The position numbers and the translations under genes are program-made. This document shows positions 798 to 34,100 of a stretch of 63,461 nucleotides of DNA, in pieces (position 1 is the stretch's first letter; each line of letters opens with the position of its first letter). The notes under the pieces were generated by a model. The model was not told where the DNA came from. It saw nothing but the letters and a program-made list of their open reading frames with translations, and searched no databases. The DNA comes from a virus (Duplodnaviria > Caudoviricetes): positions 1 through 63,461 of IMG/VR virus record IMGVR_UViG_3300034092_001286; one strand, written 5' to 3'.

Positions 798-826
798 GGC
801 GTCAGTTGGGTGCATCAGTGACCCGC

Positions 827-1504: not shown

Positions 1505-1546
1505 GCCGTAACCGTAGCGGGCGGATACCCCGCATAGGAAAAACAA

Positions 1547-2656: not shown

Positions 2657-2673
2657 CACAGGAGGTAACAGCA

Positions 2674-3015: not shown

Positions 3016-3019
3016 CACC

Positions 3020-9934: not shown

Positions 9935-10299
9935 ATCGTGTCGCTCCTGTTAGTGATGATTGCATAGCCACCGAGCGACAGCACGAGGTCGCGCCACCGG
10001 CACTGCGCGAGGTATCGCTCGTCACGGTCGCTCGGCTTCCAGTCGGGGTGTTTCACTTCGATGGACGTAAAGATGCCGAGCGTATGGCCGACATGTTCGG
10101 GCAGTATTAGCACGGGTCGTATACCAATCAGGTCCGCACTGGCAATCTGCCTGTTGAGTTGTGGGCTGTCGTTAGCTAGCCCGAACCGCACGGGCCTGCC
10201 GTTACGGTCGGGCAGGACTCCGCAGTTATTTCTCCATAGCCGCCAGCCACGCTGACTGGCGAGGAGTCGTATCTGTGCTTGTACTGACGACTCAGCCAT
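9931..10299 (-). CDS. VRR-NUC family nuclease
   Basis: E..VQ..I, LWRNN.G, ADLIG, SIEVK, Q..W...V...GG. Confidence 0.85.
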   Translation of the reverse strand: MAESSVQAQIRLLASQRGWRLWRNNCGVLPDRNGRPVRFGLANDSPQLNRQIASADLIGIRPVLILPEHVGHTLGIFTSIEVKHPDWKPSDRDERYLAQCRWRDLVLSLGGYAIITNRSDTI

Positions 10300-10666
10300 G
10301 ACACACCCCGTTACGCCTGTCAGTATTTTCCAGCGGTGTCAGCACCTGCAGATGATCGGGATTTACACACGCAGGACGACAGCATTTGTGATCGATCTCC
10401 ATGCCGTCAGGTATCGGACGATGATTCGCTAGTGTCCAGAACACGTGATGCGCATAGACCTTGTAGCCTGTCGATACCGACACGCGCCGATAACCCTTGA
10501 GCGTACCGCCGCCAGTATGACGGTACAGGATGCAGCCTGTCGCTACGTCACGATAGACTGCAGCGGACAGTCTGGCTATCAGTCGTTCTTTGTCCTTGCG
10601 TATCATCTGCACCAGCCATGCGTAAATAATCTGGCCGTTGTAGGCACCGCGTCTGCGTGCGGTCAT
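10292..10666 (-). CDS. HNH homing endonuclease
   Basis: YAHH..W..IP.GMEIDHKC.RPACVNPDHL..T..EN. Confidence 0.85.
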   Translation of the reverse strand: MTARRRGAYNGQIIYAWLVQMIRKDKERLIARLSAAVYRDVATGCILYRHTGGGTLKGYRRVSVSTGYKVYAHHVFWTLANHRPIPDGMEIDHKCCRPACVNPDHLQVLTPLENTDRRNGVCHG

Positions 10667-12273: not shown

Positions 12274-12608
12274 TCGCCGCCCGCCTCTTTGTGCGCCGCC
12301 TCGATGATCGGCTTGATAGCTATCGGCGACTCGCACCGTACCGTCAGCAGGATGGTGCCGGGTACCGGGCCTTTGGTTTGTGTGTAGGTGAGGCTGGCCG
12401 CATCAAGATGTTTCTTGAATATCGACAGTTTCCACGGCTCGATGACAATGCCGGCAACCCGCAGCACTGGCTTCATCTTCTGTTGATGATGCCGATCGCA
12501 CAGCACGCCACCGCCATTACTATGAGTACCAATCTGCGTGCAGCGTTTGCCGTCCCGCCGCTTGGCCGTGCATTGCACACGGTCTTCCTCGTAGCTGCCG
12601 TTACGCAT
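12270..12608 (-). CDS. hypothetical protein with Cys/His motif
   Basis: QCTA..DGKRC...LCDRH; GTGA overlap with the helicase. Confidence 0.65.
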   Translation of the reverse strand: MRNGSYEEDRVQCTAKRRDGKRCTQIGTHSNGGGVLCDRHHQQKMKPVLRVAGIVIEPWKLSIFKKHLDAASLTYTQTKGPVPGTILLTVRCESPIAIKPIIEAAHKEAGGE

Positions 12609-15656: not shown

Positions 15657-16571
15657 ATGTCAATCAATTTGACGAGTCCTGTAGGGAGAATCGTCCAAGG
15701 CGAACTGTGGAAAGCACAGCCCGTTCTCGATCAGCGTACCAACCAGCCGAAGCTCGGCAGCGACAACCAGCCGCTCGTGCAGCACTTCTTTGCACTGGCA
15801 ATCCCCAAGACTCCCGGCCATACCCATTGGGCACAGACCGAATGGGGCCAGAAGATTTGGGCTGAAGGCAACCGTGCGCATCCGAACTTCGCGCCGCACC
15901 CGACGTTCTCATGGAAGATTGAGGATGGCGACTCGCAGGTGCCGAACAAGAAGGGCAAGAAAAACGCAGACCGCGAGGGCTTTCCGGGCAACTGGATTCT
16001 GAAGATGCGCTCGGGCTTTCCGCCCAAGACCTACAACGCCAACGGCAGCGAGATGGTTCCGGCCGAGTCGTTCAAACCGGGTCATTACGCGCAGGTCAAC
16101 ATCAACGTCGCCGGCAACACGGGTGATAGTCCCGGTGTGTATCTCAATCCGGTGATGGCAGCACTGGCTGGCTATGGCGTAGAGATTGTGAGCGGACCCG
16201 ACGTTGCCGAGGCCGGCTTCGGTCAAGGCGTCGCGCTGCCCGCTGGTGCGTCCGCTGTGCCGGTCGGTGGCTTTGCACCGCCCGCCGCAGCAGCACCGGT
16301 ACCGGGCCACCCTTTGGCCCCTGCCGCGCCTGCCTACGCCCCGCCCGTTGGTGCTCCTGCAGCACCGTACCCGCCTATTGGTGCGCCGGCTGCGAGCCCT
16401 TCTAGCCCTGTGGCTGCTCCGAATCCGGCATTCCTTGGCGTGCCCCCGCCCCCTCCCGCTGCACCGGTCCGTAACATGACCGCCAAGGCGGCAGGTGCCA
16501 GCTACGAGCAATTGATCGCAGCCGGCTGGACTGACGCAACGCTTCTCCAACATGGGATGATGACAGCATGA
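15657..16571 (+). CDS. ssb: single-stranded DNA-binding protein (DUF2815 / T7 gp2.5-like)
   Basis: KI.DGD, PG.Y..V.......GVYLN; located between exonuclease and polymerase; Pro/Ala-rich tail. Confidence 0.75.
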   Translation: MSINLTSPVGRIVQGELWKAQPVLDQRTNQPKLGSDNQPLVQHFFALAIPKTPGHTHWAQTEWGQKIWAEGNRAHPNFAPHPTFSWKIEDGDSQVPNKKGKKNADREGFPGNWILKMRSGFPPKTYNANGSEMVPAESFKPGHYAQVNINVAGNTGDSPGVYLNPVMAALAGYGVEIVSGPDVAEAGFGQGVALPAGASAVPVGGFAPPAAAAPVPGHPLAPAAPAYAPPVGAPAAPYPPIGAPAASPSSPVAAPNPAFLGVPPPPPAAPVRNMTAKAAGASYEQLIAAGWTDATLLQHGMMTA

Positions 16572-16849: not shown

Positions 16850-17041
16850 ATGACCGTACCTGATCACAACGCCCGTATCGATAAGCTGCTCGCCGAAGCT
16901 GTTGGCCGCGATCTGTCGTCGTGGGAGCGCAACGAGTTCCTGCCGTCGCTGCGCAATTTCTGGACGCTCAGTGCCAAGCAGGAAAAGATACTCGCCGACC
17001 TTGAGCGGCGCGTGTATGACGGCGAGGATGATTGCGCATGA
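16850..17041 (+). CDS. hypothetical protein
   Basis: CAGGAG RBS; LSSWE..F..S.....LS.KQ..IL..LE motif. Confidence 0.7.
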   Translation: MTVPDHNARIDKLLAEAVGRDLSSWERNEFLPSLRNFWTLSAKQEKILADLERRVYDGEDDCA

Positions 17042-17253
17042 TGCAAACATACGACGACCACGCACAGATACTGGCTGATCCGAAGGCAACGGCAGACGAA
17101 CTGCGCAGTATTATTGACGATTTGCGAACAAGGCTCTGCCGCATATCGGCAGTGTGCGTGCTTTCATCCCATGATCTAGGGTCATCACCGATCGCTGCCA
17201 TCTTTCGTAGCATTGGTCGGTCTGCAGATGATGTACTCCCTCCTACGCCATGA
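17038..17253 (+). CDS. hypothetical protein
   Basis: ATGA overlaps on both sides. Confidence 0.6.
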   Translation: MMQTYDDHAQILADPKATADELRSIIDDLRTRLCRISAVCVLSSHDLGSSPIAAIFRSIGRSADDVLPPTP

Positions 17254-18524
17254 CCTACCGCACGCTCTTCTGCTGCGAGTCCTGCGGTTGTGGCTACTGG
17301 CAGGCACAGGCGGGCGCTGGCTGTCATCACTGCGGTGCAGGTGACTGGTTGTCGCATCGTCTTGCCCCACTCACCGTGCCGTGCGATACCGAGTGCTACC
17401 CTGACTACTGGCTGTGCAGTGTGGGCGAGCAGCACTTCCAACTCTTTCCCGGTCACCCGCTCGATACGGTCGGGCTCAAGCAGGTGCTGACCAACGCCAC
17501 GATGCTGACATTCAACGGCAACTACTACGATCACCCGATGATCAGTCTCGCGCTGACTGGTGCGAGCGCGGCTGAGTTATGGCAGGCCAACAACCGCATC
17601 ATCGTACCGGGCGGGCAGGGTCTGATGCCGTGGGAGTTCGCCAAGTTCTACGGTATCAACCTGCTGCTGTGGGATTCAATCGACATAATGAATGTCGCGC
17701 CCGGCATGGGTACACTCAAGGCGTATGGTGGCAAGATGCACATGCGCAAGCTGCAAGACTTGCCGATCGATGTCGGCACCAGCATCAGCCTGTTCGATCG
17801 TCCTGTCGTGCGTGACTATTGCACCAATGACCTAGAGACGACGGCGGCGCTAGGTGCTCGTATGAGCGCGCAGATCAAGCTCCGTGAGGAAATGTCGGTT
17901 CAGTATGGTACCGACCTGCGCAGCAAGTCTGACGCACAGATCGCAGAGGCGGCCATGAAAGCGGCCCTGTCCTTCGAGGTGACGATACCTGTCGTGCCGC
18001 AGGGTGCGACCTTTCATTACCGGCCGCCTGCGTGGATGCGCTTCCAGACCGCGCAGATGCAGGACGTGTTCGCAACGATGTGCCGCACACCATTCGCTGT
18101 CAATCCGAGCGGTGGTGTGTCACCAGCCTACGAGAACTGCTACGTCGATTGGGGCAAGGATCAGGTGCGCATCGATCCGCACGGTCAGTTCGTCAAGCGG
18201 CCTGCTGATTGGCAGCACAAACTGGTCACGATCGGTGGCATGTCCTACGCAATGGGCATCGGCGGGTTGCATTCCACGGAGAGTCGTGTTGCTATGGTTG
18301 CCGGCCACGGTCGCAAGCTCCTTTCCCCCGATGTTGCATCCTACTATCCAAATCTCATATTGGAAACTGGTATATATCCGCAGCAGATCGGCGCAGTGTT
18401 CCAAGACATATATCGAGGGTGGGTTGATACCCGAATGGAAGCAAAACATCGTGCGTCTGCTTTGAAAAAAGAACTGCAGACGTTGAAAAAGATGTTAGAC
18501 TCTTTGCCTAACGAACCATCTTAG
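17250..18524 (+). CDS. family-B-like DNA polymerase, N-terminal part (3'-5' exonuclease and motif A)
   Basis: ExoI DTECY, ExoII FNGNYYD, ExoIII YCTND, GIGGLHS, motif A DVASYYPNLI. Confidence 0.88.
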   Translation: MTYRTLFCCESCGCGYWQAQAGAGCHHCGAGDWLSHRLAPLTVPCDTECYPDYWLCSVGEQHFQLFPGHPLDTVGLKQVLTNATMLTFNGNYYDHPMISLALTGASAAELWQANNRIIVPGGQGLMPWEFAKFYGINLLLWDSIDIMNVAPGMGTLKAYGGKMHMRKLQDLPIDVGTSISLFDRPVVRDYCTNDLETTAALGARMSAQIKLREEMSVQYGTDLRSKSDAQIAEAAMKAALSFEVTIPVVPQGATFHYRPPAWMRFQTAQMQDVFATMCRTPFAVNPSGGVSPAYENCYVDWGKDQVRIDPHGQFVKRPADWQHKLVTIGGMSYAMGIGGLHSTESRVAMVAGHGRKLLSPDVASYYPNLILETGIYPQQIGAVFQDIYRGWVDTRMEAKHRASALKKELQTLKKMLDSLPNEPS

Positions 18525-18542: not shown

Positions 18543-19220
18543 ATGGCAAAATACAGATTGCATAGACCTTATCACAAAAGGAATGAGCCTATTCAGGGAT
18601 ATCGCACGGTCGACCACCCGTTGTACGCAACGTGGAGCAATATGATCGGACGCTGTTCAAATCCTGATGACACAAATTATGCAAATTATGGTGCTCGCGG
18701 CATTACTGTTTGTGCCCGTTGGCGGAAGTCATTTGCCGCGTTTGCCGCTGACATGGGGCAGCGACCGACGCCCGAGCATTCGATCGATCGGCGGGATAAC
18801 TCGAAGGGCTATTCGCCTGCAAATTGCAAATGGGCAACGCGTATCGAACAGGCACAGAACAAACGCACGTACATAACCAGTTCAACAGGCGCTGGTGGCG
18901 TACTCCCGACCAAGGCCGGCAACTTTATAGCCCGCTGGAACTACAACGGTGCGCGTTTCAATCTTGGTAGATACCCAACAATAGAGGCAGCGACGCTCGC
19001 TCGCAACGAATTTATCGTGCTGTACTTTGTTAATCGTGAGGCCGCCATGAAGATGACAGAACGTCGCGCTCGGCACGATAGCACGACGGGCGTGCGTGGC
19101 ATTACACCTCACGCCGACGGCGGGTACACGGTGCGTAAAACAGTCGATGGTGTACGCAAGTACCTTGGGTATCGCAAGACATATGAGGAGGCGCTTGCGC
19201 TATGGACCGAGCACAACTGA
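18543..19220 (+). CDS. free-standing HNH-like homing endonuclease with AP2-like C-terminal domains
   Basis: LY.TW..M..RC, YGARGITVC.RW, SIDR.DN.KGYSP.NCKWAT..EQ..N; C-terminal GV...LG.Y.T.E.A repeats. Confidence 0.88.
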   Translation: MAKYRLHRPYHKRNEPIQGYRTVDHPLYATWSNMIGRCSNPDDTNYANYGARGITVCARWRKSFAAFAADMGQRPTPEHSIDRRDNSKGYSPANCKWATRIEQAQNKRTYITSSTGAGGVLPTKAGNFIARWNYNGARFNLGRYPTIEAATLARNEFIVLYFVNREAAMKMTERRARHDSTTGVRGITPHADGGYTVRKTVDGVRKYLGYRKTYEEALALWTEHN

Positions 19221-20149
19221 TCGCGCGCATCGCAGAGGTTGAGAAGGAACTTGCTTCCCAAACGAGCCGTGCCAACAGTCTTAAAATTAATTTGAATGGA
19301 ACGTTCGGCAAGCTCGGCAGCAAATACTCGATCTTCTACGCACCGTCTGAATTGATTCAGGTCACGCTCACCGGTCAGCTTGCGCTGCTGATGCTGATCG
19401 AGGAGATGGAGCGGGTCGGTATCCCTGTTGTGTCGGCTAATACGGACGGTCTTGTTGTCGACATTAGCGATGAACAATACCCTTTGTATATATCCGTCAT
19501 ATCATGGTGGGAGCAACTGACCGGCTTCGAGATGGAGACAACAGAGTTCCGTGCGATCTACAGCCGTGACGTTAATAGCTACGTCGCAATCACAACTGAC
19601 GCTTCGCATAAATCAAAAGGAGCCTACGCCCCGCCAGAGCCCGGCCCGTCAGGCTGGCCCAATCCGACCACGCAGGTATGCGTCGATGCGGTCTGTGCGT
19701 ACCTGCAGCACGGCACACCGATCGAGACAACCATCCTTTCCTGCACCGACGTGCGCCAGTTCGTCACGATCCGTGACGTGAAGGGTGGCGGGGTCTGGTC
19801 GAACACACAGGTCGCTGTTGATGATTGGGTGTTGCTAATCGACACCGGCACGGCACAAAACGTGTGGGCCGCAGCCGGCGATCCGACCAAGACGGTCAAA
19901 CGCAAGAGCCGGCCGCCTGCACGCATGGTATGGGTTGATGACGTGCGGCTCGGCCGCATGGTCCGCTGGTACTACGCGACCAACGGTGCCGGCACGATAC
20001 GGTACCGCACCAGCGGATCGACTGTGCCGAAGAGCGAGGGGTGCAAGCCGCTCATGGAATTGCCGGACACACTGCCGGTGGATGTAAATTATCTCTGGTA
20101 TTTTGCAGAGGCCCGTAGCTTACTTAATGACGTGGGGGTAACGATATGA
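19202..20149 (+). CDS. family-B-like DNA polymerase, C-terminal part (motifs B and C)
   Basis: Own RBS GAGGAGG (19185-19191); LKINLNGTFGK, VT..GQL.LLMLIE, SANTDG, DVNSY. Confidence 0.88.
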   Translation: MDRAQLIARIAEVEKELASQTSRANSLKINLNGTFGKLGSKYSIFYAPSELIQVTLTGQLALLMLIEEMERVGIPVVSANTDGLVVDISDEQYPLYISVISWWEQLTGFEMETTEFRAIYSRDVNSYVAITTDASHKSKGAYAPPEPGPSGWPNPTTQVCVDAVCAYLQHGTPIETTILSCTDVRQFVTIRDVKGGGVWSNTQVAVDDWVLLIDTGTAQNVWAAAGDPTKTVKRKSRPPARMVWVDDVRLGRMVRWYYATNGAGTIRYRTSGSTVPKSEGCKPLMELPDTLPVDVNYLWYFAEARSLLNDVGVTI

Positions 20150-20884: not shown

Positions 20885-21801
20885 AAGCGTTAGTACTTTA
20901 TCATAACGCATGTGCCGACGGATACGGAGCCGCCTTTGCGTGCTGGCAGAAGTACCACGCGGACGGTGCCGACTACGTGCCGATGGATTACATGCGCAAG
21001 GACGCGACGCCGCAAGACCTGCTGGCGCTGGTCGGCGCGGTCGCCGGCCGCACGGTCTATATCGTCGACTTCTCGCTGCCCAAACATCTCATGCAGTACG
21101 TCTTCACCTGCGCCGCCAACACGGTATGGATTGATCACCACAAAGGTAGCTTCGAGATGTGGCTCGGCAAGTACGAGAAGGGTCTGAAGTACACCAAGAT
21201 CAGCAAGGACGAGCGGGTCGAGATTATTCTTGACGACAACCGATCCGGTGCGTGGCTGACGTGGATGTACTTCAACCCGAGCACCAACAAGGTACCGCCG
21301 ACGCTGTTCATGTTGATTGACGACCGTGACCGTTGGCAGTTCAAGCTGAAGGGCACCAGCGAGGCGCATGCGGCCCTCATGGCGATGCGCCCTTGGACGT
21401 TCTACAAGTGGTCTGTCATCTCCATCCCTGACCTGTTGGAAGTTGGCGGCAAGATCATGCAGTACCAGAACGCTCAGATCGAAGCTGCGTTGAATAACGT
21501 GCAGTCAATCCACATCCCTGTTGATCTAGCAATACAAGGTATGTTCGATGAGCAAGTGAAGGGGCTGGCTGTCAATGCACGGGACAACGTGTCTGAGATT
21601 GGCAACCGGCTGGCGCTTGCGTCAGGCACGTTCGGTGTCTGCTGGTCCGTCGATGGTGACGGTGTTGTATGGATGAACCTGCGTAGCACAGACAACGGAA
21701 TTGACGTGTCCGACGTAGCCAAGCGATATGGCGGTGGCGGGCATCGCAATGCGGCCGGTTTCAAAACCGATCTTATGACAATAGCGAGGTGGTTGAAATG
21801 A
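20881..21801 (+). CDS. DHH/DHHA1 phosphoesterase
   Basis: YH..CADG, VDFS, IDHHK, SGA.LTW, DRDRW, LRS, GGGGHRNAAGF. Confidence 0.9.
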   Translation: MKALVLYHNACADGYGAAFACWQKYHADGADYVPMDYMRKDATPQDLLALVGAVAGRTVYIVDFSLPKHLMQYVFTCAANTVWIDHHKGSFEMWLGKYEKGLKYTKISKDERVEIILDDNRSGAWLTWMYFNPSTNKVPPTLFMLIDDRDRWQFKLKGTSEAHAALMAMRPWTFYKWSVISIPDLLEVGGKIMQYQNAQIEAALNNVQSIHIPVDLAIQGMFDEQVKGLAVNARDNVSEIGNRLALASGTFGVCWSVDGDGVVWMNLRSTDNGIDVSDVAKRYGGGGHRNAAGFKTDLMTIARWLK

Positions 21802-21962
21802 ACAAGGTTAAATTCAAGAGCCCGACCGGCAAGGTCGTCAGTGTCAAAGTAACGCAATATGCTGACGTGTCACAGCGCAGCCCCGGTGCCAAGACGGTTG
21901 CTGAGACGACTCGCTACATGATGCGACAGGGTTTCGTCCGTTGCGGTCTGCGTGCATCGTGA
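21798..21962 (+). CDS. small basic hypothetical protein (54 aa)
   Basis: GAGG RBS and ATGA overlap; below the ORF-track cutoff. Confidence 0.55.
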   Translation: MNKVKFKSPTGKVVSVKVTQYADVSQRSPGAKTVAETTRYMMRQGFVRCGLRAS

Positions 21963-22141
21963 TTCTCTACGGCTGCAACAACACGCCGCGCGAGGACGGC
22001 TACATGGTCCGTGACAGCACGCTCGTCAAGGGCTCGATCGAGATACAGGTTATGCGGTATCACAAGAATACCAGCACCCGTGACTGCCAGTACCGCCGTG
22101 AGACGCCTGCTGATCCGCGCTGTACAGGTTGCGCTAAATAA
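21959..22141 (+). CDS. hypothetical protein
   Basis: GTGA overlap; C-terminal DCQY..D.RC.GC. Confidence 0.55.
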   Translation: MILYGCNNTPREDGYMVRDSTLVKGSIEIQVMRYHKNTSTRDCQYRRETPADPRCTGCAK

Positions 22142-22144
22142 GGT

Positions 22145-22173
22145 TTGACAATCCCGTTGGGTTATGTCAGCAT
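22145..22173 (+). promoter_or_regulatory. putative extended -10 sigma70 promoter
   Basis: TTGACA, 17 bp, TG-t-CAGCAT in an intergenic gap. Confidence 0.55.
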
Positions 22174-22266
22174 ATCGACTGCCACCCCGTTGCGTGACCA
22201 TCCTTTCTGTCCGTTTGGGTGTTCAGTGAGAACGCAATGTGGGCGGCACCTTACAGGAGGATCAAA

Positions 22267-22476
22267 ATGAAGACTCAACGCTCCACCGTCCTCGCGGAAC
22301 GTCTCATCATTTGGACAGCCATCATCGTGCTCACATGGTTCACCGGCTACGAGTGGGGGAGCTATTCCACACGGGTCGAGCTACAAGCTGCTTGCAAAGA
22401 GCCACGCAAGATGCAATTGCAGATGAACAAGACGCAGCAGAAGCGGTTCATCAATTACTGGAAAGCTAGGACATGA
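22267..22476 (+). CDS. small membrane protein
   Basis: AGGAGG RBS; one hydrophobic segment. Confidence 0.65.
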   Translation: MKTQRSTVLAERLIIWTAIIVLTWFTGYEWGSYSTRVELQAACKEPRKMQLQMNKTQQKRFINYWKART

Positions 22477-22625
22477 AGCTGCTCTACAGATTCTTTCTCT
22501 GGATGGCTGAGTTCGATGTTGCTATTGGAGTCTCTACCGGACGGAATCCAGAGGTCGTGGAAGCTGATCGTGAGATGGTCAGGAAGTTTGAAAACGAGTT
22601 GACCAAGTTGGAGCTAGGGCTATGA
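22473..22625 (+). CDS. hypothetical protein (50 aa)
   Basis: ATGA overlaps on both sides. Confidence 0.5.
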   Translation: MKLLYRFFLWMAEFDVAIGVSTGRNPEVVEADREMVRKFENELTKLELGL

Positions 22626-22711
22626 TGAATGATCCACTGATCGAATCAGCAAAAGAAATCGAAGCCCTGCGCGAGAAGGTTGCGGAACTGACAGCAGATG
22701 TCAGCTTCTGA
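22622..22711 (+). pseudogene. 5' fragment of an interrupted coiled-coil gene
   Basis: 29-aa ORF with ALREKVAEL, a peptide that resumes at 23295. Confidence 0.45.
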
Positions 22712-22728
22712 CGAAGAAAGGAAACGAA

Positions 22729-22971
22729 ATGAACACCTGCGCAACCTGCAAATTTTGGGACAAGCACGACGCCGAATACTACCTTGGGCTTGGGCGCTGC
22801 CGGGCTGCGGTTGAGTTCTTTAACGCGACCGGATGGAACGACGAAACCGGCGACCGGGAATTCACGAAAGAGGCGGCAAACGTCAAAGCCTTCACGCAAG
22901 ACGGCTCGGACTACCGCTCGATCCTGCTGGTGAAGGCAGACTTCGGCTGCGTATCCCATGAAGCGCCCTAA
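22729..22971 (+). CDS. Cys-motif hypothetical protein (cassette-like)
   Basis: AAGGA RBS; TC.TCKFW..G.C..DFGC..H; its stop lies in the CTAAC of an attC-like site. Confidence 0.75.
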   Translation: MNTCATCKFWDKHDAEYYLGLGRCRAAVEFFNATGWNDETGDREFTKEAANVKAFTQDGSDYRSILLVKADFGCVSHEAP

Positions 22972-23053
22972 CGTAGAAAGTGAGGGAGCGTCCGCAGCTT
23001 TATCGCCCGGCGTCCAGCGACCAAAGGGAGCGGCGTTGAGCGCCGAGTTAGAA
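22966..23053 (+). mobile_element. attC-like recombination site
   Basis: CCCTAAC...GTTAGAA ends, ~88 bp, directly after a stop codon; 3' end TTGAGCGCCGAGTTAG. Confidence 0.65.
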
Positions 23054-23074
23054 CTCAGGACAGGAGAATAATGC

Positions 23075-23287
23075 ATGTGGCCGTTCAAAACATTGGCGCA
23101 GCAAATAGGCGAACTGGAAGACAAGATCGCAGGAAAGAAGGCAAAACTCGATTGCATTGTGACTACCTTCGCCGGCCTTGAAAAAACGACTTCGTACTGG
23201 ATAGAGGAACGCGCCAACTTAGCGGAACAAATTGCTGCGCTGACGAGTCGTTGTAACCGCATGAAGAACGCGAGTTCTAACGTGTAG
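23075..23287 (+). CDS. coiled-coil hypothetical protein in an integron-like cassette
   Basis: Bounded by GTTAGAACTC (23047-23056) and its exact reverse complement GAGTTCTAAC (23272-23281). Confidence 0.7.
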   Translation: MWPFKTLAQQIGELEDKIAGKKAKLDCIVTTFAGLEKTTSYWIEERANLAEQIAALTSRCNRMKNASSNV

Positions 23288-23294
23288 GTGACCG

Positions 23295-23687
23295 GCCCTA
23301 CGCGAGAAGGTTGCAGAGTTGGGTGACGGGCTGACAATCGCATACATGGCTGGAGCCGCAAAAGTGACCGAGCAACTCGCCGCCATGACGCAGGAGCGGG
23401 ATCGCAACTGGAGCAACGCTACCGCGAATGCGATGCGGCTTGTCTATGCCCAAGCTCACATCAAGGAACTGCGGGAGGCGTTGGAGCGAATTGCAAAGTA
23501 CCCGCGAGTGCGGGGCGACGAACTCGGGTACGAAGGGTGCAGACAAGTAGCAAGTAAAGCCCTCGCCATTCCCGACGACCAATCGGCCCTTGATGCTGCT
23601 CTTAAGGTGGAGAGGGAGAAGATTTGCAACGTGATGGAGTTGCAACTGTCTGAGCGGCAGCGCAGAATTTTCAGGAGCATGAAATGA
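23295..23687 (+). pseudogene. 3' part of the interrupted coiled-coil gene (or TTG-started CDS at 23319)
   Basis: Frame opens at the direct repeat just after a TGA; no clear RBS. Confidence 0.5.
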
Positions 23688-23771
23688 TCCTCAGATATGT
23701 TATTGAGTATTGCTTGGTTGTAGTAGGGTGCTTTGTCATGGGCTATCTGCTTTCATGTGTGGTGTGACGAA

Positions 23772-24065
23772 ATGAACAAACTAACAGCACTCATCGAAGC
23801 GGCGAAGGAGACAGCAGAGAAGGAACCACTTGTTGTCGATGAAGACATTTCCATTCATGGAAGCACTTCATGGTGCAGGACTCAGCGCAAGTACCTTACC
23901 CTCGCCAACCCCGCCACCATCCTAGAACTCTGCGCCCTGTTGGAGAAGGCGGAGGAGGCGTTGGAGACTATTAAGTCGTGCTCTGCAACAGAAGGTGAAT
24001 ACGGTAGAGCACTTCAACGCACAATTAGTGAACCCCTCGCCGCAATCAAACAGTGGAAGGAGTAG
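23772..24065 (+). CDS. Ead/Ea22-like hypothetical protein
   Basis: L..AA..T...ANPATILEL..LLE..E pattern. Confidence 0.6.
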   Translation: MNKLTALIEAAKETAEKEPLVVDEDISIHGSTSWCRTQRKYLTLANPATILELCALLEKAEEALETIKSCSATEGEYGRALQRTISEPLAAIKQWKE

Positions 24066-24067
24066 AC

Positions 24068-24316
24068 ATGAGGCCGGAGCATTGGTACTTGAATGACGAA
24101 GATGAGTACATGTCAGAGAAGCTGCGGCTCGAACACGAACGCCTCAATAGCTTCACGTTTAAAAATTGCAAAAAGGCAACTGCTCTCTACACCGCTGACC
24201 AACTCCAGCAAGCGAAGGTGGAGGTGCTGCGTGAGGCGGCGGGAGAGATGAGCATCGCATCGGACTACGCAATCCTTTGGCATAGAGCCGACGAAATTGA
24301 AAGGAGCAAGACGTGA
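24068..24316 (+). CDS. hypothetical protein
   Basis: AAGGAG RBS; LYTADQL..AKVEVLREAA. Confidence 0.65.
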   Translation: MRPEHWYLNDEDEYMSEKLRLEHERLNSFTFKNCKKATALYTADQLQQAKVEVLREAAGEMSIASDYAILWHRADEIERSKT

Positions 24317-24398
24317 CCCTAGATGAAATTATGTTCTGGTACGCAGCAGTCCTGTTTGTTCTGATCGTTGTGCTGACGATCTACCAAGGAGGAATGAA

Positions 24399-25199
24399 AT
24401 GACCGACATCAAGGAACTCATTAGAGGAATTCTAGACGCCGAGTTAGTGGAACAAAAAGGCGAACTAGAAGGGTTAACGCTTCGACAAATGAACGCTGTC
24501 AATGCGATTGCGTGGAACGTCGCCCAACGCTTCCTCGCCGCCTACATCGCGGAACAGGAACCGGAGTGGTATCACTACTGCATCAATGATAATTGGGATG
24601 GGTTCAGCAAAGAACTCCCGCCTGATGACGCCTGCGACGAAGGGACACTAACCAAGCTATTCACCGCACCACCACTCCCTAAACCCGCACCAAAGGAGGC
24701 AGGATTTCATGACGTAGCTGAATTCTACAAAGAGCCTGCTGTGTGTGCGACCCCCTTGCCAGATTGCATTCTGTGTGCCAACGGAAACGATCTGCCTGAA
24801 GGCGAATATTGCCGTGGTTGCGGCCGCAGCAATGAATCAAACTTGAAGCGGGCTGTAAGGCTTGCGCGTGGAAGTAGCGAACCACCATCAGTGAAGATTG
24901 GCTTTGCGGCCCCGGCGTCCGAGGAGGTGCAGTGGATGCTGAACCACTTACGCGCAATCAGAATGACACAAGCTGCTGACCTGATCGAAAGCCTAGCCAA
25001 GCAAGTACAAGATGCGGACAACGAATGGGTTGCGCTGCACGCGGAAATCTATGCGTTGAAGCAGAGCCTAGCCGCTCGGGTTCCTGTTGGCTGGCTCGAC
25101 GGTCGTGGTAGGTTCTTTTATGCCGACGATCCGATGTATAAGAACAACCACGAAGGAATGCGAGAGGTGTTTGCAGCGGCGCATCTCACCGCGCCTTAA
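24399..25199 (+). CDS. mosaic hypothetical protein with Zn ribbon
   Basis: GGAGG RBS; CILC..CRGC; last gene of the plus-strand operon. Confidence 0.7.
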   Translation: MTDIKELIRGILDAELVEQKGELEGLTLRQMNAVNAIAWNVAQRFLAAYIAEQEPEWYHYCINDNWDGFSKELPPDDACDEGTLTKLFTAPPLPKPAPKEAGFHDVAEFYKEPAVCATPLPDCILCANGNDLPEGEYCRGCGRSNESNLKRAVRLARGSSEPPSVKIGFAAPASEEVQWMLNHLRAIRMTQAADLIESLAKQVQDADNEWVALHAEIYALKQSLAARVPVGWLDGRGRFFYADDPMYKNNHEGMREVFAAAHLTAP

Positions 25200-28100
25200 A
25201 CATCTCGTTGTATCGACGGGTCGTAGCGGTGATCCGTTCCTCAAGCATCTTGACTCGCTCAGGATTGCCGCCCTTCGCAATGACCTCGCGCTTCTGCCGG
25301 CGCAGATAACCTATCTCGCGCTGCGCCCGGTCTGCAACCTGCACCAGTCGTGCGTCAGGATGTTCCGACAGATACGTTCGCATCGCCTCACCGTTGCCGT
25401 CGTCCTTCATTGCTTCCAGCGCGGACTTGTGCTCGCCGATACGTTCAAGGTTGCGATAGAACCTGCTTGTCTCCGACGACTGCCCCTTCGTCTCGCCGAT
25501 GAAGCGACCCACACCAAGCGGTGTCTTGTGCATCGGCAGTTCCTCACCGGTCACCTTGCTGCCGACATACTGTGCGGTCTTCAGTAATTCGCGGCCGACA
25601 CCACCGGTTGCTTGACCGACGAGGTAGTCGATCTGGTCAGGCGTTGGCGACGCCATGCCGATCTCATACTTGCCGCCACCCGTAATGTAGTTGATTCCAT
25701 AGGACAGCCAACGACTCGGTGGCGACGCGCTGTCCTTGGTCCGCGTCCAGCCTGCGGTCGGATGCATCTTGTTGAAGTCTTCTTTGAAGATCGACTTGCC
25801 AGTCCAGTCTTTGTTCTCACCGAGTGCAATGATCGGATCGCCAATCGTCGGCGATAGCGTCTGCGCGAGCGTACCGCTGCCGATCGGGTTGAATGCATCG
25901 AGCATCAAGCCGGCCAGACGAACAAGACGCTTGCCGGGGTTTTTGAATCCGCCCATCATCCACTCGGCGGTGATGCGGCCGATGTTAGGAATGACGTGGA
26001 AGCCGAGCGGCATCGGCACATTGATAACCTTGTCGGTGCCGAGGATCGGAATGATGAAATTCTTCTCGCGCTGGAACTGCGGCGGTTCGTCGTCATCCCA
26101 TCCAGCCGCCGCGCCGAGCATCGCCTGCAACACACCAAGCATCATGCCACCGTAGAGAATCTTTTTGCCGGCGTCAGTCAGCTTGCCGTCCTTGTAGGTC
26201 GTCTCGCCGATCCGTGCGGTGCCCTGCACGGCAGCATTGAAGAATGCGTACAACGCGCCGGTCTGTGTGGCGGCCAGTCCTTTCTTGTTGAAATTGACCG
26301 TCAGGTTCTTGGCGAGTGACGCAGCCGCATCACGACTCATGCCTTTGTCCAGAGCCACCTTGTACGCAGACAGCCGCATCGCATTCTCAACTGCGGTGTT
26401 GTAGTCGGACAGCCAGCCAAACACGGCGCTGTGCCGCTCGCCGCCCGTGACCCATTGCTTTCCCTTGCCGGCGTGCTCAAGCTCCTTGGCGATCGCTTCC
26501 GCACGATCGGTACTGGTAGCAAACGCATCGCGATAGCCGGTCTTACCGCCGTCCATTGCGAACTGCTCAAACAGTTGAGCCCATTGCGAGGTGGGCTGCT
26601 TGCCCGCACGATGATCGCGCAAGTCGGCATAGACACCACGTAACGCATCGAAGGCATGTCGCGCTACAGCCGCTCTATCAGCAGACAACGGTGTACTCGA
26701 CAGGTTCAGCATGCCCGTGCTGAAGTCGCGGATACCGTTGGTCATGCCGAAGATCGGGTTGTACTGTGTATTGACACTGGCGAACCATCGTGTGACCGGA
26801 GCGATAACTTGCAGCACACCACTGACCGACGCTGCGTCCAGATTCTTCAGGCCACGAACCATCTCCTGTGCGCGTTTCTTGTTGGAGAAAAATACGTACC
26901 GTTCCTCGCCGTTAATGCGCGTGCTCAGTACGTCGTCACGACCGCGCAGTTGCGGATTGATCCGCTGCATCTCAAGCCCGGTCTTCGGATCGGTGTATCG
27001 CTGCACCGGTTCGTATGCCAGATTCTTCGCATCCAGCGGATTGACACCGATCGCTACCAGTTCAGCAATAGCCGCTTGTAGCGCAGCCGGCGAGAGCTTC
27101 TTATTTAGTTCAGGATTGACCGGTATCCAGAACTCAGGATTCGGTGCCGACAGTGCCAGTCCATAGACAGCCTGCGCCACACGGTTCTTCTCGCTGCGCG
27201 TAATCGCCCGCTCGCGCTGCATGGCAATGTTTGCCAGCACATCGGTGACAGCACGCTTGCTGCCGAGGGCGCGCTTGCTGGCTGCACCACGCACCGAGAA
27301 GCCGGTGCCTGTACCGTTGCCAAGGCCGAACGCTCCCGAGTAGTTCGCATCGGACTCCATGTCCCGCTTGAGTGGTGCGTAGTGTGCGTAGGTGCGCTTC
27401 CACGTATCGACCGTCTCTTGGGTTTCCAGACCGCTCGATACGAGCAGATCGAGCGTGCCGTTGGTAATCGCATCAACCCTGCTAGCGACCGCCTGCGCGG
27501 CCCGCAGTGCGGCAGGGGTAAGTTGTATCGTCCGACCGTTCAGCGTGACCGCCTGCCCGGCAAGGATGGCGGCTGACTGCGCATCCGACATGCCCGAGCC
27601 ATCAGTAATTGTTGGATTGGTACGATTGTTGGCGGCATTGCGCTCCGGTGCGTGTCGTGCCCACAGGTAATCATCCAGATCGGCCATAGTCAGCTTGCGC
27701 ATCGCCATGTCTTCCATCAGCTTGCGCAGTTCCCCATCGGCGAACGCATCGACCCGAGCGGCAGCCCGACCGTGATAGTTCGTTTCCAGCAGGTAGGCAT
27801 CGAACTTCTCCTTGACCGCTACACCAGCCTCACGGATCGCACGGAGCACACGCTTCGTATCGATCTTGTCGTCCTGCATCTTTCTTACAAAGTCGTCCCA
27901 ATCCGTCACGTCTGGATCGGTCCATGACTGGTTGATCGGCTGACCATTTGTGCGGGAGCGGGGAGTGCTCTGGCGCGGTACGTCAGCAGCAGCAGTCAGC
28001 AGTGCCGCGATCTTTTTCTCAGCGGCAGGATCGTCAGGAATATCAGACTGACTATCGTATCCTTCAGCAAAGTGCTGCTTGTGCGTGATGTGTTCTTCAC

Positions 28101-31100
28101 GTTTGAATCGAGCGAGCCATGCAGCAGGTGACGACGCGCTACCGAGGAAGTCGTAGATCGTACCGTCGATTCGAGCGCCGTAATGATCAGTCATATCGTT
28201 ATTACTGCGAACGATACGCACCAAATCACCGCCGCCGAATGCACGGATCAGAGCCTTCGCGCAGATCAGACAGCCGCCATCGAACGGCCCGCTGTTGTTA
28301 CTCGGTCCGAAGTCAAGTGCCTCGTACAGTCGGTCATCCTTATAGACAGCAGCTATTGCCGCGTCTATGCGTCGCTCACTCCGACGTATGTCATCGTCCT
28401 CACGACTATAGGCACCGGAGTTACCGCTGGCCGACTTGACCTGATTGGGCGAGAACACCGCAAGGTTCGTCACGCCGCGCTCGCGAACGTAAAACGAGTC
28501 GTGGTTCTCACGGATATATTCCTGCACCTGCGGACTCTCAATAGCGTTCCAGTCGCCGCGTTCCAGATCGCCGATATGTTGTGCAACCTCGACCATCTCG
28601 CCGTTGATGAATTCATGCCCCATCCACGATCCGCCGAGCAATTGCTCGATCTGCTGTACGTGCTGCGGGTTGCGGTAGTCGAACGGGTTTTCAGCCCGCA
28701 CGTACAGCGGCATGATGTTCGATTCGCTCGGCATGAACTTCTCGACCGCACGACGCATGTACTGGCTCGGCTGCTGGCTCTGGTTTAAGAGCCGTTCCTC
28801 GCGGTTGTATAACGAGCTACCCGGCAGTGCATCAGCCAGCAGCATCTTGCGCGCATCAGCCTTCGCTTCCTGTATCTGATCGGGCGTCATCCACGTCCAG
28901 AAGTTGTTCAGCATCCAGCTATGCGACAGGTCTGAAAACTCTGCGGCAAACTCGGGATCGTCGGTCAGGAAGATCGCGTCAGCCTGCTGTGGCCGGAACG
29001 TCGATATGTCACGGGCGGTGCCGTGGTACATGACGGTGCGTACCTTGGACTTGCCGAGCCATTGGTCGCGACGTTCAGAGAAGCGCGGAGTACCTTCGTC
29101 TCGAAGTTCTTTGTCACGTGCGAGAAGTTTGTCAGGATGCCACGGACCGTCAGCCAGTTCGCCACCTGCGTAATATTTGACTTCGACAGGCATGTGCTTC
29201 CAGCCGAGTTCAAGCGCAGCCATGATGCGATGATTCCCTTCATTGACCCACGGCATTCCGTTGTGATCAATCTGGATGAACGGCGCGTACTCGTCAGTGC
29301 TTTCCTCTCGCACAGACGGCAGGCGACCTGTCTTGCCCATGTGGTCTTTCAGCCAGTTTAGATCGTCGGTGCGCACGCTACGCTGCTCGCCCATAATTCC
29401 TTTGACATATTGAAGGCGACGAAGCGGGATGAGCACCTTGTCCGAGAAATAACCAGTCACGGCACCGAACCGTTTGGGCGCACCGTGCGTGTTCGTTCCC
29501 GCTGCTTCTGCGTCACGTTGTTGCGTGCGCAGCCAGTCGCCACCGGGATTGTCGGTACGCAGGCGCGGCTCACTACGTTTCTCCGGTGCATCCTTCGGCA
29601 TATCGGCAAGACGCTTATAGAAAGTTTCGCCGACCTTATATCCGCGCAGCTTCCATCTACCAACTGCTTCGGAACCGAGCATTGTCTTGCCAGTGCGCCC
29701 GGTATCCCACACTTCAATTTTCACCACATCGTCGGATGTTCTACGAGAGGCGCGCTTTACGCCGGGAACGGTAGTCTCAACCACCCACCCACCTGCCGGC
29801 TTACGTGCCGTGCTAAACAACGGCATGCCGATCCGTGCCTGTTGCCGCATCTCGTCGGTGATGTCGAAGCCGGGTTGGGGCGCGCCGGCTCGCTTCTTTA
29901 GAGCAGCTTCGGCAGCTTTTTCAGTACGATAAACAGTGTCGTCGCCATCAACATGCCATGCATTCGGATTTCCGGCATCTCGCCACACACCTTCGCCTGC
30001 TTCGTGCCCATCTGTCGTAAGCTGCACCTGTAGCAGCGTCGCACCGAGCTTGCGCGCGACCTGCTTAACGATACCGTCATAAAACGCGACCATCCCTTCG
30101 CCGCCGACTCGCAGAGCCTGCCCGCGCATGACGCGCTGGTTGTTCATGTCAGGCTTCATTGCCAGCAGTTTTGCTGCTGCGTCTTTACCAATCAGGTCGG
30201 CGAGTTCTTTCTCGTCGGCAAACGTGCGCTCGATTACATTCGCGCCATCCTTGCGGGCTACGAGGGTGTTATCGTCATATGCGACCAACTCGTCAACCTG
30301 CTTGCTCAAGTCATAACGCTCGACCTGTTGCTCACCTGTCGTCCATGCCACCCGGTCAAATCCGTTATCGACGGCATAGGCAATCGCGCGCTTTAGCGCC
30401 AGTGCGGTCCATGCCTGCGTGTCGGTGACGAAGGGTGCTGATGGTACTGCCCCTAGCTGCACGTCAGTCTCGACGACACTAAAGTCCTCAAGGCCAGCAT
30501 CACGCCCATACTGTTCAGCATCTGCGCGACTACCGAAGTACGTCGGACGCAGAGGGCCTCCGGTGTTATCTGTGATGGTGTACCGCGCGGTGCGCCCAGC
30601 AAACCCGTCCTTCCGCCCCTTCTGCGCCCAGTCGCTCTGCACTTCCTCGATGAACAGCACGCGCTTGCCGCCAGCATCGGTCCGCTCGTCAAAGCGGACG
30701 TGCGCGAGGATGTTCGGTTGCGGGTAGTGCGAGCCGCGGAACTCTTGCTTGCGACTCTTGTCGGTTTGCATCTTCTCGATGCGTAACGGGTATTTCTCAA
30801 GATCACTGGCAAGTTCTGGCACCGACGATATGCGGTCAATATAACCTTGAGCGTCTTCGCGCGTCTTGAACCCATCATGCGGGAATGCACCATAAACAGA
30901 GAACGTATTTTCTTCCGGTGTGCGGCGCGGCAGTACCAGCAGCAACTCACGGTACGTACCGGGCTTGCCACCCGGCAGTGACTGCTCGCTGTATTTAACC
31001 TGCTCACCAATCGCCGCCTTACGCTGCTCAAACAGTTCGTTCTTGCGGTTGAGTGCGCGCCCGTAGGCGAGCATGGCGTCGAGTTGTTCGGGCGAGAATG

Positions 31101-34100
31101 GGTCGTTGGTTTCAACAACACCGGTACGATTTATCCGCTCCATCGCTAAATATGACGACGAACTGTTTTTCCATTGCGCACCAAACGCAGCCTTCCGCAG
31201 CCGTGCAACCTCTACCTCCTGCTCCTGCAACTCAGCATCCAGCCGCTTGTACTCGGCCGACTCCTCACCGAGCATCACGTCCCTGACGCGCACGCCGTTG
31301 CTCGCCAGCCAGTCCTGTATCTGCGCGCCCGTCACGCTGCGTTGCGTCGCCAGCCAGTCCAGTACGCCGGACCATTGCAGTTCGTCTTTCTTGACACCGA
31401 GCTTGCTGGCATTGCTCTGCAGCCACAGCGCCGCTTCCTTGCCTGTGCGCACCTTGGCCGGCAAGCCACCGACCGCTTCGGACAGTTGCGAGCGATACCA
31501 TTCCTTGCGGGCCTCAGACTTACGGGCTTCGGCGCTGGCACGGCGCTGCGAGAATAGCGGCATACCGGCAGCGGCCGACTCACGGAGCTTGTCGGTAATC
31601 TCGAAGCCTTGCTGAGTACCAATCTCTATGGCAGCCTTGCTGGTTGTGAGCGATTCGACGTTTAGTTCTGCACGTTCCTTCGTCGGATGCGACACAAGTT
31701 CCTTGCCGTCCTGCTGCACGATCCAGCGACCGGCCGTGTCAGGATCAGGTGCGACACTGTACTGCCGCACCTTATGCACCTCAATGTCCTTCACCCGCAC
31801 GTCCTTGTCGAACTTTTTAAGTATGTCGTTTGCAATGTTCGGCAGCATCCGATCATAGAAGCCGGCCATGCCGGTATCGGATATGGTAATGTCATCGCCG
31901 GTAATCTCGCCCGACTGGTTCGGATCGGCGATGATCTGCTTCGCCATCTGTTTGCCGATCGCATCGGACAGTGCCGTCTCGCTGACGCGGGTGTCTGTAC
32001 GCTGCCTGCCGTTCTGGCTGGCGACAATATGAATGCCGTCAGGTGTTTTCTCCCATGCGATCGTATCGACCTGTTTGCGCAGGCTGTGACGCCACCGCTC
32101 GACCTGTTGGGCACCGCTCGTCCAGACCACTTTGTCAAAGCCGTACTCGACAGCATGAGCGATCATGCGCTTGAGCACCAGACCAGCCCATTGCGGCGTC
32201 TTCTCGATGAATGGTGCGGCGTCGGGTAGGTCGCGACTGAGCGCGTCATACTCGCGTTGCAGTTCGCGCCGGTTTGTCTCTAGCTTGGCAATCTTGTCGG
32301 CCGCAACCTTGGCGTCGGACGATACGTCGTTAGATAGTGCACGTGATCCCATCGACCTGACGTTATTCCAGTCAGAACTTGTCCATGCGTCTTCAGCTTC
32401 CGGCAAGACTTGCTTCAGCGCGAATATCGCGTGAACGCCTTCGTCACCTAGCTCATCAATCTGCTTGATCAGTACCGCAGCCCGCTCTGCCGCCTCCAGC
32501 CCCTCACGCCGCTGCTGACCCCAATCACCCTGCACTTCCTGCAAGACCATGACGCGCTTGCCGTCGCTGTCGGTATGCTCGTCCCATCGGGCATGGCCGA
32601 CGACGTTTGCTTCCTGCCAGTGTGTCGTGTAGTAATAGTCTTTGACAGGCGTGCGTTCGGTACGCAATTCGTCGGGCCTATATTCCCATCGACCGCCGAT
32701 GCGTTCAGCCTCTCGCTTGGCAGATTCTTCCGATACCGTACCGAGCGTCGCGTTGCCGTCCGCATCAAACACGGTGTATGAATCGCGCTTCAGCGTCTCA
32801 GTTACCGGCATACCAAACGCACCGACCGGCAGCGTCAGTTGTACCTCACGATACGACCCCGGCACCGCACGTCTAGTATCTAAGTTGTAGTCTTTGCTTT
32901 CCCATTTAACGCTATGGAAGTCACCACCGGAGCTACCGGAAACCAGACCTTCCTCCATGACGAGCTGACGGATCACACCTTCTACATCAGCGTCGTCAGC
33001 ACGGCGCGGCAGCGGTATGTCGCGCCCGTCAAAATACACCCGACGCTCACCATACGACGTACTGTCATAGAACGTACCATCCACACCATCGACCGTGATA
33101 GCGCGCGTCTGCGGAGATTCATAATCGTCGTAATACCACGTGCGTTCCTGCTCCGTCAGTTCTTCCAACAGCTCGTCGTCGTCAATCTCGGCACGGGCGC
33201 GACGACGGGCTTCCTCTTCCAGTGCTTCAATGTCACCGGACAGCACGGCAAACGCGCGATCGACCGCTTCGGCCTGCACCGCTTCGTCGGTCATGTCGTT
33301 GCTGTCGTCTGTGTATTCCTGCCACGTATCGCCGGCTACCTGTGCCGCCGCAATACTACGAGCGGCTTGTTCAACCAGCGTTTCATCGACCGGGAACATG
33401 TCACCCATCTGACGCTGCACGTCGGCCGCAATGTCAGGCAGATTGACCTCTATCCGTGTGCGGGCTTCGTGCTCTATGTCGTCGTAAATGTCTTCCCACG
33501 ACTGCTCGACGCGATCATCAACAACCTCATCGAACCGATTATTCGCACGCTCGGCCAGCCAGTCCTCGTCAGGATCGTCCATCTCCCACTCACCGACGTT
33601 CAGTTCAATGTCACTGTCTTCCGCATCGACCTCTTGCGTGCTGTCAGTTACCGGGCTGCGCTCACCTCGCAGTATGGTTTCGATCTTTACGCCAAACTCA
33701 GACAGATACGCCTGCACCTGCTCGCGTGTGACCTGCGCCTCGCCCTGCGCGTCGAGCCACTCTTCAATACCGGACCACTTGATTTCATCCGGCTTGACAC
33801 CCTTGGCCGCCAGCGACTTGAGCCACGACTTCCAGCCCGATGCCGGCGCTTTCTTCATCTGTGCAGTATCAGCCTGACGGGCGAGCGGGGAGTACCACCA
33901 TGTAGCGGGACGACTCTCAGAGAGACGTGCAACCGGTTCTGCAAGTGCGGCTTGTGCCGCAGCGAGCTTGTCTGTATTTGAGAACGATTCCGGTATTGGC
34001 CGCAACGTGCCGTCCTGCGTCACTGCGTATCGGTTGTAGCCGCTAGCGCCATAAACGACACCCGTGCCGCCGTTGTCTTTGTATAGATCGTAGGTGCGCT

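Follow-up and report, generated by a model that had tools for sequence, protein, structure and literature searches.

Integrons are the classic device by which bacteria capture and reshuffle genes, and in phages they are known as a rarity: the main text of Qi, Rajabal, Ghaly, Tetu and Gillings (2023; PMC9892861) reports 21 integron-bearing phages among 10,705 NCBI phage genomes. The same text describes 17 phage clusters of attC sites lacking integron integrases (CALINs), a CALIN being a group of two or more neighbouring attC sites with no intI, and the recombination of five out of six phage attC sites by IntI1. In that account, both virulent and temperate phages have attC cassettes while lacking intI, complete integrons are present in a small number of phages, and action of the host integrase IntI in trans is the proposed mechanism; the phages analysed here resemble them in these respects. 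The locus in question lies at about 22691–23297 of IMG/VR virus record IMGVR_UViG_3300034092_001286, the 63,461 bp of which make up a complete phage genome with direct repeats at its ends and are referred to below as the window. It is likely that this locus is the fossil of an integron-type cassette array (CALIN) in the early-gene region of a virulent-looking phage.

Phage attC cassettes are, as a kind, already published (Qi et al., 2023). What is new relative to that main text are the lineage-wide arrays, the attC type in common with the likely hosts, and the inverted build of the cassettes. Unlike in the phages described there, one attC family recurs here in dozens of metagenomic viral contigs, with up to 12 sites per array at E ≤ 0.01. 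Betaproteobacterial chromosomal integrons have this family too, the open reading frames (ORFs) of the cassettes lie on the attC bottom strand, and the window copy is decayed. Neither the family, nor the betaproteobacterial link, nor the ORF polarity was found in the main text of Qi et al. (2023), the supplementary tables of which lie outside this comparison; the phage lists may overlap.

Two further kinds of system are close to the locus. In the passages of Loot et al. (bioRxiv 10.1101/2022.09.11.507474) on cassette entry and loss, attG-type insertion lets cassettes enter genomes without attI, and replication slippage easily deletes folded attC sites, leaving domesticated cassettes. The window locus looks like the latter outcome. 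Unlike an attG-type insertion, it has no identified attG-type junction, and the 27-nt duplication found in the window is not made by that reaction. It also differs from complete integrons in the lack of intI; no attI was recognised, no dedicated attI search having been made. T4-type phages, in turn, possess promoter/stem-loop "mobile regulatory cassettes" between genes, and their intergenic hairpins flank small accessory genes and accompany modular shuffling. Those cassettes probably use homologous recombination and are not known to be related to attC, whereas the present elements belong to the attC type and have crossover points of the integrase kind.

The decayed attC sites of the window

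The features of the cassette locus are listed below; R1 denotes a covariance model built from the attC family itself, box1 and box2 are the outermost conserved boxes of a site, and a slash marks a crossover position.

22473–22625, + strand: conserved upstream ORF, the stop of which overlaps the start of the 29-aa gene X fragment
22622–22711, + strand: 5' fragment of gene X, a 29-aa ORF with homology to gene X of the related contig L186
22664–22690, + strand: left copy of an imperfect 27-nt direct repeat, encoding ALREKVAEL in frame
22729–22971, + strand: cassette gene A, 80 aa, Cys-rich, of no known family, with its TAA stop inside box1 of the next attC
22966–23053, + strand carrying the bottom-strand form: decayed attC, 88 nt, the best match to model R1 in the window
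22972–23280, + strand: putative mobile unit "cassette B" (attC, then ORF B), bounded by the AA/C of two box1 sequences
23075–23287, + strand: cassette gene B, 70 aa, a predicted coiled coil with no family above threshold
23275–23297, + strand: truncated attC, a 23-nt stump reduced to box1 TTCTAAC, the GTGTA spacer and the beginning of the 5' arm
23295–23321, + strand: right copy of the imperfect 27-nt direct repeat, encoding ALREKVAEL in frame
23295–23687, + strand: 3' part of gene X, the frame of which is open from the right copy of the repeat onwards

The coordinates given in an earlier note on this DNA, which had been made from the sequence alone, all hold on re-reading. ORF 22729–22971 stops at the TAA within CCCTAAC (22966–22972), where the 88-nt element begins that extends to GTTAGAA (23047–23053). 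On the 5' side, the element consists of box1 (R') CCCTAAC, the spacer GTAGA and a non-homologous 5' arm (22978–22995), and on the 3' side of an arm ending in TTGAGC (23036–23041), the spacer GCCGA and box2 (R'') GTTAGAA. Either side of ORF 23075–23287 lie GTTAGAACTC (23047–23056) and GAGTTCTAAC (23272–23281), perfect reverse complements that form the ends of cassette B and are complementary at 10/10 bases. Next comes TAACGTGTAGGTGACCGGC, at 23278.

The earlier note had taken these sites to be of the attC type, and comparison with other members of the family supports this. The 88-nt element holds an exact match to the 16-nt pattern used for retrieval of the family (see below), and the top R1 match in 2 × 63 kb falls at exactly 22966–23053, the runner-up scoring 10.6 bits. 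When aligned to a long variant in contig L042, the element agrees at 11/12 positions in box1 plus spacer and at 49/58 positions in the 3' part; it was also aligned to a variant in L003. In the truncated element, 19 consecutive bases (23279–23297) agree without exception with those that open a full element of the related contig L188 (oriented position 6862, an R1 match). The gene-flanking boxes of the window match at 7/7 variable positions, which is seen in 24% of the true gene-flanking pairs of the family and in 0.7% of the shuffled ones. Set in this family context, the observation is, on sequence comparison, far beyond chance.

In its present state, the window holds one degenerate full-length site plus a 23-nt stump 222 nt further on. 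Compared with the family consensus boxes RYYYAAC and GTTRRRY, CCCTAAC and GTTAGAA are each off at one degenerate position, and TTCTAAC is off at the first. The full-length element cannot form the L stem because its 5' arm matches relatives at only 4/18 positions, and no attC-like hairpin forms. The caveat that the element could be hybrid or decayed has proved well placed, the 5' arm of the full element being unrelated to its own 3' arm, and the site may be a hybrid of two attC subtypes rather than merely mutated. As judged by eye, the aberrant 5' arm (GTGAGGGAGCG) resembles the 5' arm of another subtype (ATGAGGGGCG, found at L001:11543–11613 and in L033).

Two other readings were considered and rejected. 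The stump at 23275–23297 was compared with the TAAC-GTGTG site that ends the array of contigs L190 and L192, but an attI-like terminal site is ruled out here by the 19-nt identity to the start of the L188 attC. The sequence CGCCGAGTTAG at 24437–24447, an 11-base string that also occurs at the 3' end of the decayed attC and sits here inside ORF 24399–25199, was considered as the relic of a third site; it has no other attC feature upstream and is probably due to chance.

One attC family in viral arrays and bacterial integrons

The 16-nt pattern common to the window and the related contig L001 retrieved 111 stretches in IMG/VR. Upstream of 87 out of 118 pattern matches, box1 plus the L signature were found, which gave 73 distinct sequences of 43–133 nt. 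The alignment was made from 54 distinct copies of 54–73 nt, with 18 longer copies and one spurious 43-nt copy excluded. The layout of the family is RYYYAAC, a spacer, a stem with three bulged bases in the 3' arm, a variable loop, a second spacer and GTTRRRY; the spacers of 5–6 nt were entered as unpaired in the structure supplied. Across all 54 copies, AAC and GTT are invariant or nearly so. The 12-pair L stem is 92.3% paired, and compensatory changes occur in 7/12 pairs (54 unique short copies). The whole 19-pair structure is 87.4% paired, as compared to 24–47% when the partner columns are slid by 1–3 positions, and none of 500 shuffles reached the observed pairing or covariation score. The total length of attC sites is roughly 57–141 bp; members of the family measure 54–133 nt, with variable loops, and the window element 88 nt. 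Based on the aligned sequences, the architecture of the family is that of the attC site as described in the passages of Nivina et al. (2016) on site structure, including extrahelical bases on the arm next to R'' and an unpaired central spacer.

Some members of the family are attC variants of about 123 nt (L045:601–723(−), L040:1226–1349, L058:557–679(−), L011:12916–13037(−) and L089:2218–2340). By eye, their loop holds a ribosome-binding site and an ATG, from which the frame continues across the 3' arm and box2, with the peptide ...SALSAGL..., and on into the gene downstream; part of the attC would thus be translated.

The R1 search yielded 241 matches at E ≤ 0.01 in the 73 loci searched, with up to 12 per locus; at E ≤ 0.1, locus L056 reaches 13 sites. 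The sites of a locus are all on one strand except in two of 67 loci, neighbouring sites are separated by a median of 343 bp, and each cassette is made up of an attC and, downstream of it in the same orientation, a single small gene. It is a hallmark of integron cassettes that the two boxes on either side of a gene can pair with each other, which is not required of the two boxes within one integrated attC. Such complementarity is expected if the gene-flanking boxes once formed a single attC stem in a circular cassette. In the family, gene-flanking boxes are complementary at 5.33/7 variable positions (168 unique adjacent pairs), as against 3.58/7 for boxes of the same element and 3.38/7 for shuffled partners (the maximum of 500 shuffles being 3.64). 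The hallmark that the earlier note had recognised in the window, where the match is 7/7, or 10/10 with three further bases, is in this way borne out by the family.

A stricter 23-nt pattern retrieved 46 stretches in species-representative genomes which, going by the titles of the records, are mostly those of Betaproteobacteria, with a few others. The carriers include Rhodocyclaceae, Thiobacillaceae, Nitrosomonadales, Gallionellaceae and Methylotenera, as well as Candidatus Desulfobacillus denitrificans, Candidatus Accumulibacter and Propionivibrio. The bacterial loci gave 178 R1 matches in dense arrays, in which the box hallmark is the same (5.28 versus 3.27). An integron integrase above the TIGR02249 cut-off was found in all five family-carrying genomes tested and in none of 14 control genomes, and the family adjoins intI in 4/4 bacterial genomes checked. 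In G041, a complete genome, seven sites come straight after intI, within 8 kb, and the cassette ORFs end in sites. On the basis of these matches, the attC family is regarded as typical of betaproteobacterial chromosomal integrons. The viral arrays resemble these sedentary chromosomal integrons in the attC family and in the complementarity of gene-flanking boxes, and the viral contigs with intI do so also in the attC polarity relative to intI. Cassettes common to viral and bacterial contigs occur, as in L109 and L129, which are 99% identical over 815 bp. Some of the stretches from genome bins are phage contigs; L156 is identical to L035 over 6,067 bp.

Cassette polarity, mobility and rival readings

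In three bacterial genomes (G041, G042 and G044), the R1 matches lie on the intI-sense strand, and in G041 the cassette ORFs run the opposite way; for this reason, the R1 orientation is taken to be the canonical bottom strand. G045 has one R1 match on each strand. The assignment fits the position of the bulged bases beside the GTTRRRY box and that of the crossover in L190 versus L192 (see below). When the longest ORF was used for the strand call, 85 antisense and 18 sense cassettes were counted in bacteria, and 93 sense and 67 antisense of 162 in viral contigs. As this call is too noisy in viral contigs, codon-usage log-odds were used instead, with the following result:

Viral contigs, 175 unique cassettes: 109 sense to the model, 5 antisense, 61 unclear
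Bacterial arrays, 103 unique cassettes: 13 sense to the model, 35 antisense, 55 unclear

Phage cassette genes lie on the opposite strand relative to attC as compared to bacterial cassettes, the ORFs of which are on the top strand and point away from intI (35 antisense and 13 sense, versus 5 antisense and 109 sense in viral contigs). In consequence, two details of the earlier note change. Its R' and R'' labels have to be swapped, as the coding (+) strand of the phage has the bottom-strand form, with box1 RYYYAAC as R' and the GTTRRRY box as R''. The crossover, which had been placed at 23047/23048 (G/TTAGAA), moves to CCCTAA/C (22971/22972) and TTCTAA/C (23280/23281). Given this polarity and the crossover position seen in L190 versus L192, the boundaries of cassette B would lie at the AA/C of the two box1 sequences.

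Relatives of the window phage have arrays in the position of the window locus, flanked on one side by the DHH phosphoesterase gene and on the other by the convergent gene for the giant virion protein (4,379 aa in the window): there are five sites in L001, four in L002 and six in L188, and arrays also in L187 and L189. The DHH phosphoesterase of L001 is 97% identical to that of the window, and the contig is collinear with it up to 22625 and entirely different beyond, the variable stretch having gene-end elements that resemble the window's element. In L186–L190 and L192, 20 R1 matches were found, all of them on the early-gene strand. The 25 other loci in that search, namely L191, the contig of which stops shortly after the array, and 24 that are more distantly related, gave no R1 match. 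The readable stretches of the relatives hold arrays of four to six sites and are CALINs by the definition given above. L002 and L186 have a cassette gene in common, at different positions of the array.

In L190 and L192, the array is found at a second locus, between homologues of window positions 16871–17039 and 17249–18422, upstream of the DNA polymerase gene. The two contigs are otherwise 99.5% identical, and the difference between them is precisely one cassette, which is extra in L190 and closes the array. The AAC common to the sites contains both junctions of this cassette, and its two ends can pair with each other over 10 nt. Read from the junctions, the difference is the product expected from integrase-type excision or insertion. 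Homologous recombination is unlikely for this cassette because the sites that bound it share too little sequence, only AAC plus one base. The array of the second locus (L190 oriented 603–3096; locus 9840–12333, −) ends in the non-attC site (TAAC-GTGTG…) mentioned above, which adjoins the newest cassette in a position analogous to attI.

The insert of the window presents a different picture. In L186, the giant protein of which is 98% identical to that of the window, gene X is intact (169 aa), with no cassette inside. In the window, gene X is split, with two cassettes between a 29-aa 5' fragment, residues 2–21 of which are 80% identical to the N-terminus of L186 gene X, and a 3' part with 37% identity to it over 113 aa. 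The earliest possible start of the 3' part is TTG at 23319, with GAGAAGG before it. The outer junctions of the 631-bp insert lie inside the split gene and not at G/TT. Breakpoints of relatives at the conserved triplet, which the earlier note had anticipated, are seen in L190 versus L192 (at AAC) and not for the window's own insert versus L186. At the outer junctions, 22664–22690 is repeated at 23295–23321; a repeat search gives 23 nt with 91% identity, and over the full 27 nt there are four differences, all of them synonymous. We read the locus as a remnant that was probably moved or trimmed by illegitimate or homologous recombination.

Several results weigh against the view that the locus descends from an integron-type array. 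The outer junctions, with their 27-nt (nine-codon) duplication, are by their sequence not the product of an integrase, and another junction between L190 and L192 sits in a conserved leader, not in attC. The perfect 10-nt inverted repeat of the window is at chance level, as 0.95 such repeats are expected (first-order Markov simulation of 22001–24500, counting 10-nt pairs at most 400 nt apart; at least one pair in 46% of simulations). The fold of the bottom strand, which the earlier note had proposed as a check, speaks against the element as well, since the 88 nt fold no better than shuffles on both strands (z +0.33 and −0.57). The full element of the window scores weakly with model R1 (13.9 bits, E 0.25), the seed elements of the family were gathered with a pattern that fixes 16 columns, and the R1 search covered 73 of 113 loci, with L054 and L075–L113 left out. 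Lastly, the distant homologues of genes A and B (L124–L127) show no R1-type sites within 3 kb.

The first of the rival readings regards the locus as a common type of hairpin or terminator between genes, accompanied by a 10-nt inverted repeat that arose by chance. The frequency of the repeat and the lack of a significant fold agree with it, and so do other searches: an Rfam scan of 21500–25000 at E ≤ 10 returned noise only, and YTAACG is not enriched in the window (20 matches versus 38.8 expected), nor is TAACGTAGA. However, a chance origin leaves the agreement with family members at 49/58 and 11/12 positions, the 19-nt exact match of the stump to the full element of a relative, the best R1 match at exactly the noted coordinates, and the arrays of relatives at the same locus without explanation, and we consider it highly improbable.

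A second reading takes the sequences to be attC-derived and has them reshuffled in phages by homologous recombination, general or phage-encoded, and single-strand annealing at conserved attC arms and leaders, without action of an integron integrase on phage DNA; they may also act as intergenic RNA hairpins. The junction of L190 and L192 in the conserved leader after box2 agrees with this, and it indicates that the arrays are subject to ordinary recombination as well. The duplication inside gene X delimits the window insert, the window encodes a Gp2.5-like single-strand annealing protein (ORF 15657–16571), and crossovers anywhere between box1 and box2 would keep the existing box complementarity. 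Arrays are also carried by phages without tyrosine recombinase (G009, G028, G002 and G004). On the other hand, the L190 cassette breaks exactly at sites sharing a sequence too short for homologous recombination, and gene-flanking complementarity needs a split-attC origin, yet 109 of the 114 strand-called phage cassettes have the polarity that is in the minority in bacterial arrays, and they were therefore probably not simply imported ready-made. This reading is, in our view, quite doubtful. In several cassettes of the lineage, the leader itself (…CAGCGCCGACTTTTGA-AGGA…) separates box2 from the start codon; it was seen at L186:13290–13255(−), in L190 and L192, and at L001:11620–11656.

Source of the integrase and meaning for the phage lineage

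The absence of an integrase from the phage, as stated in the earlier note, was confirmed: no PF00589 match, and hence no tyrosine recombinase, was found in the complete window genome with terminal repeats, while the control search was positive in 14/14 genomes. Among 40 array-bearing viral records, 10 have some tyrosine recombinase, and in three of them it is an integron integrase (TIGR02249 scores of 476, 479 and 464 bits; cut-off 265). The array-bearing phages without any tyrosine recombinase include G009 and G028 (100% complete), G002 (99%) and G004 (92%). In the three contigs with intI, the array is directly upstream of intI on the same strand, among phage-like genes (L062:3709–6778, L066:501–3312 and L029:2615–8777). 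The order in L062, on one strand, is array, PAPS-reductase-like gene, intI and lambda-type integrase with an Arm domain; in L066, intI is accompanied by PAPS-reductase-like and HNH genes, and L029 has DHH, array, intI and ParB.

These contigs raise the possibility that the servicing integrase is phage-borne, that is, that related phages with a complete integron supply IntI in co-infection or from a prophage. Three out of 40 array-bearing records encode an integron integrase, with the array directly upstream and in the same orientation, and the contigs hold a lambda-type integrase with an Arm domain, PAPS-reductase-like genes, DHH phosphoesterase, ParB and HNH. Against this, the window and 37/40 records are without intI, the three contigs are 19–44% complete fragments that are possibly integron pieces called viral, and the presence of IntI in all five family-carrying bacterial genomes offers a simpler source. 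We regard a phage-borne supply as unlikely.

If the locus is the fossil of an integron-type array, an integron integrase acting in trans would fold the + (bottom) strand of replicating phage DNA and insert or excise cassettes. The integrase would come from the chromosomal integron of the host or from a co-resident phage carrying intI. The earlier note had proposed exchange by way of a host IntI or of a system owned by phages, and both sources of integrase exist elsewhere, in 5/5 bacterial genomes and 3/40 viral records. Exchange of accessory genes is seen in the relatives L190 and L192; there is no sign of it in this phage, where L pairing is gone from one site and the other is truncated. In the window, the system appears to be dead, one attC having lost its 5' arm, the other being truncated, and the insert splitting gene X. 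Genes A and B would therefore now be fixed passengers, probably transcribed with the early operon.

Both cassette genes have coding-like codon usage, with scores of 11.1 for gene A (0 for any antisense ORF) and 12.2 for gene B (0 antisense). Only four homologues of gene A, all of them unnamed, were found among 5.8 billion proteins searched, with distant homology (41% identity) in other viral contigs, and gene B has one viral-contig relative, L127, with 44% identity. A tblastn search with the small ORFs of the window against all fetched loci revealed no relatives of genes A and B inside arrays. Searches for relatives via gene X and via ORF 24399–25199 found none, and the INPHARED DNA search with 22000–24400 as a query gave no match.

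Elsewhere, the window encodes a terminase, a portal or adaptor protein, a major head protein, a primase-helicase, a split DNA polymerase and the annealing protein mentioned above; the identity of the terminase to that of the nearest isolated phages is below 50%. The DNA polymerase region comprises three ORFs on the + strand (17250–18524, 18543–19220 and 19202–20149), two of which match the N- and C-terminal parts of phrog_1252, while the 225-aa ORF between them may be an insertion of the homing-endonuclease type. The 4,379-aa ORF (25186–38325, −) converges on the cassette locus. Its C-terminal 400 aa have 168 confirmed relatives in IMG/VR, and attC arrays were found nearby only in those at least 77% identical. 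Two tiny, strongly hydrophobic ORFs of 27 and 23 aa, too short for the threshold of the ORF list, were read by eye at 23684–23767 and 24331–24402 (+); the start of the first overlaps the stop of the preceding gene (ATGA), and the stop of the second likewise overlaps the start of the next gene.

We see about an even chance that a phage lineage, probably infecting Betaproteobacteria, has an integron cassette pool of its own, located at fixed early-region loci, with the majority of its members being without an integrase and a few having intI. Its cassettes would be built opposite to the bacterial ones, with the gene downstream of attC on the strand of the bottom-strand hairpin, often ending with the TAA of the R' box, often following the conserved leader, and in the ~123-nt variants seemingly starting translation in the attC loop. 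The window itself is of modest importance as an end state in which cassettes became fixed after losing their sites. The system as a whole would be amenable to tests of IntI action on phage DNA in infection, of what determines cassette polarity, and of the roles of small early genes. If the lineage-wide picture holds, cassette exchange would be a regular means of renewing early accessory genes in some phages, possibly including anti-defence genes, with the integron integrase as the routine engine of this turnover. Such phages would use the integrase and attC type of the host with a separate, oppositely oriented cassette pool, and the phage and host pools would be largely separate despite their one common attC type.

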